This document shows, piece by piece, positions 24,219 to 26,934 of a stretch of 64,000 nucleotides of DNA; within the stretch, counting starts at the first letter, position 1; every line of letters starts with the position of its first letter. Below the pieces are notes generated by a model. The model was given only the letters and a program-made list of their open reading frames with translations. It searched no databases and had not been told where the DNA came from. The DNA is from Chloroflexota bacterium (GTDB taxonomy: Bacteria; Chloroflexota; Limnocylindria; Limnocylindrales; CSP1-4), in NCBI GenBank assembly GCA_013698095.1, contig JACCVQ010000120.1, forward strand, positions 2,350 to 66,349, written 5' to 3'. The position numbers and the translations under genes were made by a program.

Positions 24219-26934
24219 GAGTGCCGACGTCCCAACCCAACGCACCGTGAGCCCGACACATGGCTCGACCGTTGAGGTCGAGCTGCCCATCGCGGGCATG
24301 ACCTGCGCCTCGTGTGTCAACCGGATCGAGCGGTTCCTGCGCAAGAGCGACGGTGTCGAGACCGCGTCGGTCAATCTCGCGACGGAGCTCGCGACGATCC
24401 GCTACCTGCCCGACCAGACCGGCCGGGCTGAGCTGGCCCGCACGATCGAGGCCGCAGGCTACGAGCTGAAGCCGCCCCCGACGGCCGAGGAGACGGCCGC
24501 CCGGCGCTCGCTGCGCGCCGCCGCCGAGATGGACGATCGCAAGAAGTCGGCCGAGGCGAATCGACTGTTGCTCGAGGCCGCAGTCTCGATCGGCGTCGCC
24601 GTCGTGATCATGGTGGCGATGTTCTGGCCCCAGACGTCGCTCCCGATGGAGACGATCAACTGGTGGGCACTCTTTCCTGCCACGATCATCCAGCTCTGGG
24701 CTGGCCGGCGGTTCTATCGGGCTGCGTGGCGAGCGGGACGCCACGGCGGCGCGACGATGGACACGCTCGTCGCTGTCGGCACGACCGCGGCCTGGGCCTA
24801 CAGCGTGGCCGTGACGTTGAACCCGGAATGGGTCCATGAAGCCGGCCTGCACCCCGAGACCTACTTCGACAGCTCGGCGATCGTTCTCGGACTGGTCCTC
24901 CTCGGCCGTTGGCTGGAAGCGCGGGCCAAGACCCGGGCGAGCGGGGCGATCCGTCGTCTGATCGGGCTCCAGGCGACGTCTGCCCTCTTGATCGAGCCCG
25001 CCGGCGACCGGACCGTGCCGATCGAGGAGATCCAGCCCGGCGACCTGCTCCGGGTCCGGCCAGGCGATCGGATCCCGGTCGACGGGGTGGTGATCGATGG
25101 TGGATCGGCGGTCGATCAGTCGATGCTGACCGGCGAGCCGATTCCGGTCGAGAAGGCGTCGGGCGACGAGGTGTTCGGGGCGACGATGAACACGACCGGC
25201 ACGTTCAGCTTCCGGGCATCGCGTGTCGGTGCCGACACGGCACTCGCCCGGATCGTCGCGCTCGTCGAGCACGCCCAGGGCTCGAAGGCGCCGATCCAGC
25301 GGCTGGCCGATCGAATCAGCGAAGTGTTCGTGCCGGCGGTGCTCGTGCTCGCTGTTGCGACCTTCGGGGCCTGGTTCGCGTTCGGCAGCGAACCCCGCTT
25401 GACACTCGCGCTGACCTCGTTCATCGGGGTCGTGATCATTGCCTGCCCGTGCGCAATGGGCCTGGCCACACCGACTGCGATCATGGTGGGGACCGGCCGC
25501 GGCGCCGAGGCCGGGATCCTGTTTCGCGGCGGCGACGCTCTCGAGCGCGCTCACCGGGTCGACACGGTCGTGTTCGACAAGACCGGGACGCTGACCCTTG
25601 GCCGGCCGACCGTCGCCGCGGTCGCGGTTGCCGACGGCTGGGCCGAGCGCGACGTGCTCGACCTGGCCGGTTCCCTCGAGGCCGGCAGCGAGCATCCGCT
25701 CGGCGCCGCGATCGTCGGCCGCGCCCGGCTCGACGAGCTCGGCTTCCGGCCGGTCAGCGGGTTCGAGGCGATCGCGGGTCACGGCGTCGTCGGCAGCGTC
25801 GATGGCCGGGCGGTCCTGGTCGGCACCGCGCGGCTCCTGCGCGAGCGCGGGATCGACCCGACGCCGCTCGCCGAGTCGGCCGAGGCCATGGCCCGGGACG
25901 GACGGACTCCGGTCTGGATCGCAATCGACGGAGATGTCGCCGGCATCGCCGCGATCAGCGATCCCGTCAAGGCTGAATCCCGCGGCGCGGTCGACGAGCT
26001 CCGCGCAGCCGGGATCGACGTCTGGCTTGTCTCCGGCGACCAGGCCGCGACCGCCGCGGCCGTCGGCGCCCAGGTCGGGATCGCCCCGGATCGGATCCGG
26101 GCCGAGGTCCTGCCAGCGGACAAGGAAGCAGCGATCGCGGCGCTCCAGGCCGAAGGCCGGGTGGTCGCAATGGTCGGTGACGGGATCAACGACGCGCCGG
26201 CCCTGGCCCGGGCCGACGTCGGCGTTGCGATCGGCAGCGGCGCCGACGTCGCGATCGAGGCGGCCGGGCTCACTTTGGTTGGCGGCGATCCTCGCGGGGT
26301 CCCGGCGGCGATCGCGCTGTCGCGGGCGACGATGGCCGTCGTCCGCGAAAACCTGTTCTGGGCGTTCGCCTACAACGTGGTCCTGATCCCGGTCGCGATG
26401 GGCGTTCTCGTTCCAATCGGGGTCACCCTCAGCCCGGCTCTCGCCGCGGCGGCGATGGCCCTGTCATCGGTGGCGGTCGTGACGAACTCCCTCCGCCTCC
26501 GGGCGTTCGACGCCCGGCCCGCTGCGGCGCGCCGCGCGCCCGGCCGTGGAACGCTGGCCCGTCTCCGGCGCGGCTGGTACCTCGTCGGGGTCGCGATCGC
26601 CTCGCTGGCGCTCGCCGGCGGAGTTGTCGCGGCGGACCGGGCCATCGACGCCGGCGCGGTCAGCGTCGACGTCAGGGCGAGCAACGTCCGGTTCGAGCCC
26701 GCTGACATCACGGTGCCGGCTGGACGCTTCGTCGTGGTCCGATTCACGAACGACGACCCGATCTTTCACGATTGGATGGTGGAAGGCGTGGCGAACGTTG
26801 ATGCCGGCGCCCGGCCCGGCCAGACCCAGCGGATCCGGTTCCGGCTCGACAGGCCGGGGACGTACACGATCATCTGCTCGGTCGAGGGCCATGCCGAGGC
26901 CGGGATGGTCGGTCGGCTGGTCGTGACCCCATGA
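24217..26934 (+). CDS. copA: copper-translocating P1B-type ATPase with an N-terminal HMA domain, an extra C-terminal TM helix and a cupredoxin-like domain
   Basis: [22 protein letters not shown] and GDGINDAP motifs. A ninth TM ([20 protein letters not shown]) and type-1 Cu ligand pattern H...C-x4-H-x4-M ([17 protein letters not shown]). Confidence 0.9.

Follow-up and report, generated by a model that had tools for sequence, protein, structure and literature searches.

How Cu(I) leaves a P1B-type ATPase, and what then receives it, is only partly understood, mainly from the transient contact between CopA and CusF in E. coli; for single-membrane cells we know of no Cu(I) acceptor. A gene from a Chloroflexota bacterium raises the question of whether a copper pump could carry such a partner on its own polypeptide. 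The gene lies at 24217..26934 on the forward strand of a 64,000-nucleotide stretch of DNA (GenBank assembly GCA_013698095.1, contig JACCVQ010000120.1, positions 2,350 to 66,349), hereafter the window, and ends with the stop codon TGA at 26932-26934; all of its features given below are on the same strand. It encodes a 905-amino acid (aa) CopA-type P1B-1 ATPase followed by a predicted ninth transmembrane helix, TM9, and a cupredoxin domain. A sequence-only reading of 26560-26934, which runs from residue 782 to the stop codon, had proposed that an extra hydrophobic helix displays a cupredoxin-like domain on the extracytoplasmic face of the pump, as a built-in acceptor or redox partner for exported copper. 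The strings that it relied on can all be located in the open reading frame (ORF), at residues 787-806, 850-853 (FHDW) and 885-897.

We find that the fusion is real and is conserved across Candidatus (Ca.) Limnocylindrales, a group of soil and freshwater Chloroflexota. Although both of its parts are well known singly, a clade-wide, nine-helix CopA with a predicted outside blue-copper domain has apparently not been described.

The fusion and its conservation

As the window comes from a metagenome-assembled genome (MAG), and as the next gene downstream is frameshifted, a frameshift or a lost stop codon might have joined two separate genes. A survey of homologues leaves this explanation with next to no chance. 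A full-length search returned an identical protein in NCBI nr (P0121). It also returned over 110 clusters whose members are about 900 aa long, at 68-89% identity, and all complete clusters have the same architecture of HMA, ATPase and Cupredoxin_1 domains. Relatives of the tail are encoded in at least 438 GTDB genomes, counted as one per species, and the best 80 of these, almost all Limnocylindrales or Chloroflexota, make up our set of related loci. The junction between M6, the last helix of the canonical core, and TM9 is read through in all 67 loci that are not cut by a contig end. In 61 of the 67, DKTGT, CPC and cupredoxin stand in one frame; the six exceptions, mostly in long-read MAGs, break inside the ATPase and not at the junction. 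On the evidence of these clusters and of the loci, which come from many independent assemblies, we reject a frameshift artefact.

The cupredoxin and TM9 are constrained as much as the catalytic domains, with mean identities of 78% for TM9, 76% for the A-domain, 73% for the cupredoxin and 70% for the P/N domains. Where full-length clusters carry a source name, nearly all are Chloroflexota or Ca. Limnocylindrales MAGs, and Ca. Deferrimicrobium is the label of one partial entry. When 1.84 billion representatives were scanned exhaustively with HMMER, more fragmentary ATPase fusions came to light, with tail identity down to about 47%, and the only divergent representative with an organism name is again from Limnocylindrales. 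Databases already list these proteins as ‘heavy metal translocating P-type ATPase’ or ‘Cu+-exporting ATPase’, with Pfam domains assigned automatically.

The core is, by its signatures, a complete and ordinary CopA-type P1B-1 ATPase that is predicted to transport Cu(I). A cytoplasmic HMA metal-binding domain (residues 24-83, 24286..24465; Pfam HMA, 54.2 bits) with the motif C30-A-S-C33 opens the protein. Motif scans place CPC (C410-P411-C412, 25444..25452), the intramembrane Cu(I) site, in M4, and DKTGT (25576..25590), the phosphorylation motif, at D454; TGE at 305 and GDGIND at 654 complete the catalytic set. Helices M5-M6 (residues 694-763, 26296..26505), with M6 at 740-763, end the canonical eight-helix core, as judged from the AlphaFold2 (AF2) model and the P1B-1 signatures that they bear, N712-x6-YN-x4-P and P740-x6-M-x2-SS-x5-N. 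The subgroup signature CPC / N-x6-YN-x4-P / P-x6-M-x2-SS-x5-[NS] was reportedly set out by Arguello in 2003. In an alignment of 95 full-length homologues, the pump motifs (CPC, YN, MxxSS, DKTGT, TGE, GDGIND and CASC, the last within M28-C33) are all invariant.

Family models and structure agree with this assignment. Pfam finds E1-E2_ATPase (251-431) at 191 bits and Hydrolase (448-667) at 112 bits, and the protein scores far above the NCBIfam cut-offs for TIGR01511 (ATPase-IB1_Cu; 608.3 bits, cut-off 397) and TIGR01525 (626.8, cut-off 346). It falls below the cut-off of the E. coli CopA equivalog model (685 against 1316) and is not an E. coli-type orthologue. The full-length AF2 model (mean predicted local distance difference test score, pLDDT, 80.6; predicted template modelling score, pTM, 0.73) contains all eight core helices (MA, MB and M1-M6). 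By Foldseek it matches solved Cu(I) ATPases, with a template modelling (TM)-score of 0.87-0.88 to 7r0g and 45% identity to 3rfu and 4bbj.

Several database entries that resemble parts of the fusion turned out to be something else. A word-indexed search with the tail alone returned only ‘plastocyanin’ proteins of at most 235 aa. These begin inside ATPase helices M5/M6 and are thus fragments or internal-start calls of the fusion, not stand-alone cupredoxins. P0108 (140 aa), from a 4-kb contig, joins HMA directly to the last ~80 cupredoxin residues and skips the ATPase, probably through chimeric assembly or because an internal part was deleted. Four MAGs labelled Verrucomicrobiia, Gemmatimonadales or Saccharimonadales (loci L015, L022, L032 and L043) hold fusions 68-78% identical to Limnocylindrales ones, for which mis-binned contigs are more likely than horizontal transfer. 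In the exhaustive search, the top-scoring relatives of the tail (P0241, P0242, P0246, P0247 and P0248) are not ATPases at all, and instead contain three to seven tandem cupredoxin repeats at ~35% identity per repeat; P0247 (906 aa) also bears a CBM96 carbohydrate-binding module.

Predicted topology and copper site of the tail

The proposal of an extra hydrophobic helix after the eight-helix core is borne out by hydrophobicity, by AF2 and by conservation. TM9 is a predicted helix of residues 787-813 (26575..26655), continuous in both the full-length and the tail-only AF2 model, with a hydrophobic core at 788-806. This stretch has a Kyte-Doolittle value of 2.12 and a summed Hessa-scale value of +0.91 kcal/mol, in a protein whose core helices range from 0.10 to 8.16; five of the eight are less hydrophobic than TM9, which thus ranks within the top four. 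All 80 related loci keep the segment hydrophobic (Kyte-Doolittle 1.9-2.75).

To orient TM9, we counted charges. The linker between M6 and TM9 (residues 764-786, 26506..26574) is Arg-rich, with seven Lys+Arg, all of them Arg, and a single acidic residue. Across the 80 related loci, 4-8 Lys/Arg and 1-4 acidic residues fall within the 25 aa that precede TM9. Short core loops follow the positive-inside rule without exception, with five and seven Lys+Arg in the cytoplasmic loops and none in the four outside loops. Because the linker is strongly positive and the core loops obey the rule, the linker should be cytoplasmic and TM9 should run N-in/C-out, which would put the cupredoxin on the outer face. 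The placement made by the sequence-only reading is therefore also the one predicted here: our analysis gave no cytoplasmic position for the C-terminal domain and upheld a ninth transmembrane helix. With a predicted extracytoplasmic cupredoxin and an outside C-terminus, the protein would depart from the P1B-1 topology, in which both termini are cytoplasmic. We know of no earlier P1B ATPase with nine helices and an outside C-terminus.

Two other placements would change what the tail can do. TM9 could be an internal, cleavable signal peptide that frees the cupredoxin as a soluble extracellular protein, and it does show an n-region (RLRRGW), an h-region and a c-region (V-A-A, then DR); in most homologues the residues at -3 and -1 are small. 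However, a hydrophobic stretch of 19-20 residues within a continuous 27-residue AF2 helix is more anchor-like, position -1 is taken by V, I or T in some homologues (...GVVAV, ...GVLAI, ...GVLAT), and release from a single-membrane cell would lose the protein. We consider cleavage quite improbable. A segment that does not span the membrane, leaving a cytoplasmic metal-binding domain, has precedents in the cupredoxin-fold cytoplasmic domain of Streptococcus pneumoniae CopA and in CupA, which is membrane-anchored yet faces the cytoplasm (PMC7558416, PMC5552934). We reject it as very improbable on ligands and topology: a type-1 ligand set is what extracytoplasmic proteins typically have, and TM9, which ranks within the four most hydrophobic helices, has flanks that fit the positive-inside rule.

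The domain that follows TM9 (residues 814-905, 26656..26931), predicted to be extracytoplasmic, is recognized as a cupredoxin by Pfam, AF2 and Foldseek. The beta-rich domain of the sequence-only reading is thus present, with a cupredoxin fold, but its size had been overestimated: it spans 92 aa, or up to about 99, rather than ~110. Pfam Cupredoxin_1 (cut-off 27) scores 40.6 bits with the whole protein (E 2.8e-10) and 45.4 bits with the tail alone (E 8.7e-12), and the tail also passes the Pfam cut-offs for Cu-oxidase_2, SoxE and Copper-bind. AF2 models the tail alone with high confidence (pLDDT 95.7) as one long helix plus nine strands.

In Foldseek, auracyanin B (1qhq) is the top match to this model, and matches with a probability of 1.00 extend to auracyanin, plastocyanin, CuA domains (including Thermus CuA, 5ndc_B) and AcoP. 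A copper-bound Cupredoxin_1 protein from Bacillus anthracis, 4hcf, also superimposes closely (TM-score 0.92, root-mean-square deviation 1.3 Å). By sequence, the best PDB matches are the CuA domain of Thermus ba3 oxidase and its engineered variants (E to 3.5e-10, 33-35% identity), followed by auracyanins, plastocyanins, nitrosocyanin and the type-1 domains of nitrite reductase. The helix and the cupredoxin together are homologous to subunit II of ba3 oxidase (1ehk_B, E 3.7e-9).

The predicted copper ligands are H851 in FHDW (26767..26769), which aligns to a His of the Thermus CuA domain, and the loop C887-x4-H892-x4-M897 (26875..26907), the spacing on which a type-1 site had first been suggested. 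All four residues are invariant in the 95 full-length homologues, and they persist in 65 more divergent tails, save for one truncated and one gapped fragment. C887, H892 and M897 align without a gap to residues 122, 127 and 132 of the auracyanin B chain (pattern PGTYxxIC[ST]xxGHxxAGMxGxLxVTP), which we take to be its Cys, His and Met copper ligands. Beyond the ligands the tail offers little to bind metal: it has two His, both of them predicted ligands, two Met, one of which is M897, and one Cys. With so few Met and His it has no accessory metal-binding segment, and with a single Cys it does not form a CuA site. On these grounds we place the tail in the cupredoxin superfamily, with the ligands of a type-1 site, and predict that it binds copper.

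Putative operator and neighbourhood

An operator-like palindrome, TATACTCCC-C-GGGAGTATG (24201..24219), fits the CsoR-type pattern 5'-TAC-X9-GTA-3' and can be written as TATAC-TCCCCGGGA-GTATG; it ends in the ATG start codon. CsoR operators are recognized by a pseudopalindrome that has a G/C tract and the pattern 5'-TAC-X9-GTA-3' (PMC3902906). The exact site is single in the window, where 0.04 would be expected by chance. In loci L001 and L002 it is identical despite diverged flanks, and the central base alone varies. Over the start codon, TATACTCC-N5-GGAGTATG is found in 51 of 56 intact loci and in none of the equal-length intragenic controls; the other five (L056, L062, L066, L068 and L073) have a different TAC...GTA palindrome, CTACRTCCC...GATGTAG.

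From this conserved CsoR-type site we infer that a CsoR-family protein represses the gene and that cytoplasmic Cu(I) induces it, with the palindrome as the putative operator. Copper-induced expression is typical of detoxifying CopA pumps and not of pumps for cuproenzyme assembly. Within the 64-kb window, no ORF resembled CsoR in a crude scan for the motif R[IVLM]xGQ, and a scan upstream of the gene found no sigma-70 consensus promoter. Inside the operator, a TATACT lies 10 nt before the ATG, which lacks a properly spaced Shine-Dalgarno sequence; together these hint at a leaderless mRNA.

The gene does not sit in a dedicated copper operon, a possibility that we rejected as its conserved neighbours are Ogt, two small ORFs, a 4HBT thioesterase, two FabF and FabD. 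The window holds no second cupredoxin gene and no HMA/CopZ gene. Upstream, on the reverse strand (20895-22868), an MFS transporter (MFS_1/MFS_3) carries a C-terminal cyclic-nucleotide-binding domain, and the same fusion occupies the same place in L001. Two small forward-strand ORFs with good ribosome-binding sites (23636-23871 and 23907-24163; ~78 and 85 aa) lie between ogt and the ATPase; neither has a Pfam match or Cys/His metal-sensor motifs, and L001 has ORFs of similar size, 79 and 90 aa, at the same position.

Downstream, the ATG of the forward-strand thioesterase gene (26931-27430) overlaps the ATPase stop (ATGA). This gene is frameshifted near 27263, with residues 6-114 in one frame and 115-166 in another relative to the intact L001 orthologue, which reflects either a MAG assembly error or a pseudogene; the gene is absent in L002. 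Tandem FabF-like beta-ketoacyl synthase paralogues follow on the reverse strand (27448-28878 and 28903-30282), succeeded in relatives by a FabD-like acyltransferase, and this FabF/FabD block flanks the ATPase in both L001 and L002. At a G+C content of ~70% across the window, many overlapping antisense ORFs appear, as is usual at such composition.

Possible roles of the tail and comparison with known systems

What might a type-1 centre do at the exit of a copper pump? The earlier suggestion of a built-in acceptor or redox partner seems plausible to us, and of the two we favour the redox option. The reading that we prefer, and to which we give slightly less than an even chance, is a copper-detoxifying pump with a tethered type-1 centre that oxidises or captures exported Cu(I), in the manner of CopI. 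A rise in cytoplasmic Cu(I) would release a CsoR-like repressor from the operator, and the pump would be made. Its cupredoxin, tethered beside the pump exit if our placement is right, would be displayed on the outer face, and the first exported copper would fill its buried type-1 site. Once loaded, this site could act as a one-electron acceptor, oxidising Cu(I) that has just left the pump to Cu(II), which is less toxic, and would then be re-oxidised by some partner or by O2. In this way the pump would bring with it an extracytoplasmic module for handling copper, and its lineage probably lacks periplasmic chaperones to which the metal could pass. The prevailing view is that Chloroflexota have a single membrane. 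A diffusible partner would then be lost, and tethering would solve that loss.

Known copper systems supply precedents for the separate steps. CopA is reported to pass Cu(I) to periplasmic partners such as CusF instead of releasing it freely, and copI, whose product is required to tolerate copper, shares a gene cluster with copA (PMC7558416). CopI has a His-Cys-His-Met site and reportedly oxidises Cu(I) (PMC13308877 and its reference 8). Several observations weigh against extending this to the tail. The tail has none of the His/Met-rich segment that is essential in CopI, and it scores 30 bits with the CopI model against a cut-off of 280. A lone type-1 site cannot reduce O2 efficiently, so that a re-oxidising partner is needed, and we identified none. 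There is no other copper gene in the window or in the conserved neighbourhood. Finally, we call the operator from its likeness to a consensus, and members of the CsoR/RcnR family respond to other signals as well.

A bolder form of the proposal, which we offer tentatively and think unlikely to hold as it stands, is a ‘pump-oxidase’: ATP-driven export of Cu(I) would be coupled directly, in one polypeptide, to the one-electron oxidation of the exported ion at the tethered type-1 centre, with the electron passing to the respiratory chain.

The strongest of the other explanations, which we rate as unlikely, keeps the electron transfer and drops detoxification. The tail would be a self-metallated electron carrier, an auracyanin-like respiratory shuttle for which the ATPase serves as anchor and as an assured copper supply where there is no periplasm. 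In both fold and ligand loop, the tail comes closest to auracyanin B. This blue copper protein, known from Chloroflexota and tethered to the membrane, has an identical C-x4-H-x4-M spacing, and a type-1 site with no accessory copper-binding residues is a classic electron-transfer centre. However, a CsoR-type operator would allow expression only at high cytoplasmic copper, an odd arrangement for a housekeeping carrier; there are no respiratory genes in the conserved neighbourhood; and a 1:1 stoichiometry with a low-abundance pump suits a bulk carrier poorly.

Less probable still is a non-redox acceptor or buffer, in which the tail, as a tethered CusF-like chaperone, takes Cu(I) at the exit, speeds its release, and passes it on or buffers it. 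The reported transfer of Cu(I) from CopA to periplasmic partners, rather than free release (PMC7558416), agrees with such a role, and a tether would replace diffusion in a cell without a periplasm. But the tail has no conserved surface Met/His cluster as found in chaperones, and copper bound at a buried type-1 site is essentially never released, so that a single turnover would saturate the site. We favour the redox role over the chaperone role for this reason: the buried His/Cys/His/Met site is too tight for turnover and is a classic electron-transfer centre.

The tail might instead be an external sensor that signals to the core, by way of TM9, whether it holds copper or what its redox state is, and so tunes the pump, for example by feedback inhibition when copper outside is high. 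TM9 is conserved like the core helices (78%), and terminal domains of P1B ATPases are commonly regulatory (PMC11970713); the known regulatory domains of these ATPases are, however, all cytoplasmic, and we judge a sensor improbable.

Through this lineage-wide natural fusion, the pump comes with a candidate acceptor or redox partner in its own chain, a stable object for cryo-electron microscopy, spectroscopy and transport assays. It also offers a view of copper management in abundant, uncultured soil and freshwater Chloroflexota (Limnocylindria).

How does this architecture compare with what is known? With CopA-type P1B-1 ATPases (3rfu, 4bbj, 7r0g and E. coli CopA) the protein shares the HMA domain, the eight-helix core, the copper-site residues and the A/P/N domains, at 42-46% identity and TM-scores up to 0.88. 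Described members end in the cytoplasm after M6, whereas here a ninth helix and a predicted extracytoplasmic domain are added. We found no C-terminal extracytoplasmic cupredoxin on a P1B ATPase in the literature searched, in which subscription journals are thinly covered. The only published fusion of a cupredoxin fold (Pfam Cupredoxin_1) to a P1B-1 ATPase that this literature yielded is the N-terminal domain of S. pneumoniae CopA, to which CupA is related, and a 2024 paper on the terminal metal-binding domains of P1B ATPases mentions that cupredoxin-like domain as the sole alternative fold (PMC11970713). The domain studied here differs in being C-terminal, behind an extra helix and equipped with type-1 ligands. 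We rejected membership in the CupA / S. pneumoniae CopA family, as the tail lacks Cys...CxMxM, stands at the opposite end of the protein and is predicted to lie on the opposite side of the membrane.

The predicted layout of the tail, one helix followed by an outside cupredoxin, is that of subunit II of Thermus cytochrome ba3 oxidase, which is oriented N-in/C-out. The CuA centre of that subunit has two Cys (C-x3-C-x3-H-x2-M) and two copper ions, whereas the tail has one Cys in a mononuclear type-1 pattern and is not part of an oxidase. Membership in this family was rejected on the absent second Cys and on Pfam COX2 scores of 14.6-18.5 bits, below the cut-off of 22. Auracyanins A and B of Chloroflexus and the Roseiflexus auracyanin resemble the tail in cupredoxin fold, in ligand loop and in the outer-face tether predicted for it, with an overall identity of 22-28%. 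They are stand-alone proteins with their own N-terminal anchors that act in photosynthetic or respiratory electron transfer, whereas the anchor here is a copper pump.

The best functional analogue is CopI (Rubrivivax gelatinosus, Vibrio, Pseudomonas), a copper-induced, green, single-domain cupredoxin of the periplasm with His-Cys-His-Met ligands. CopI is soluble, has a signal peptide, and needs an internal His/Met-rich segment and an N-terminal His-rich site (PMC13308877); none of these is present in the tail. The tail is not a member of this family: NF051440 gives 30.2 bits against its cut-off of 280, only the last 40 residues align, and there are just two His and two Met. Nevertheless, the fusion may serve as a ‘Rosetta stone’ that links copper export to copper handling by a cupredoxin, as CopA and CopI do separately.

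Finally, in Fet3p/Ftr1p, EfeUOB and FtrABCD, a cupredoxin-type redox centre is physically coupled to a metal transporter and the ion is oxidised there. We draw this as an analogy only, although the tail does show weak NCBIfam similarity to the EfeO cupredoxin domain. Those systems import iron with separate subunits, whereas this protein is predicted to export copper with a single polypeptide. Should the pump-oxidase prove true, no P-type ATPase before it would have been known to carry a functional redox domain outside the cytoplasm. As a natural fusion it would trap the elusive hand-off from pump to acceptor for structural study, and it would mirror, for export, the ferroxidase-permease principle of Fet3p/Ftr1p.

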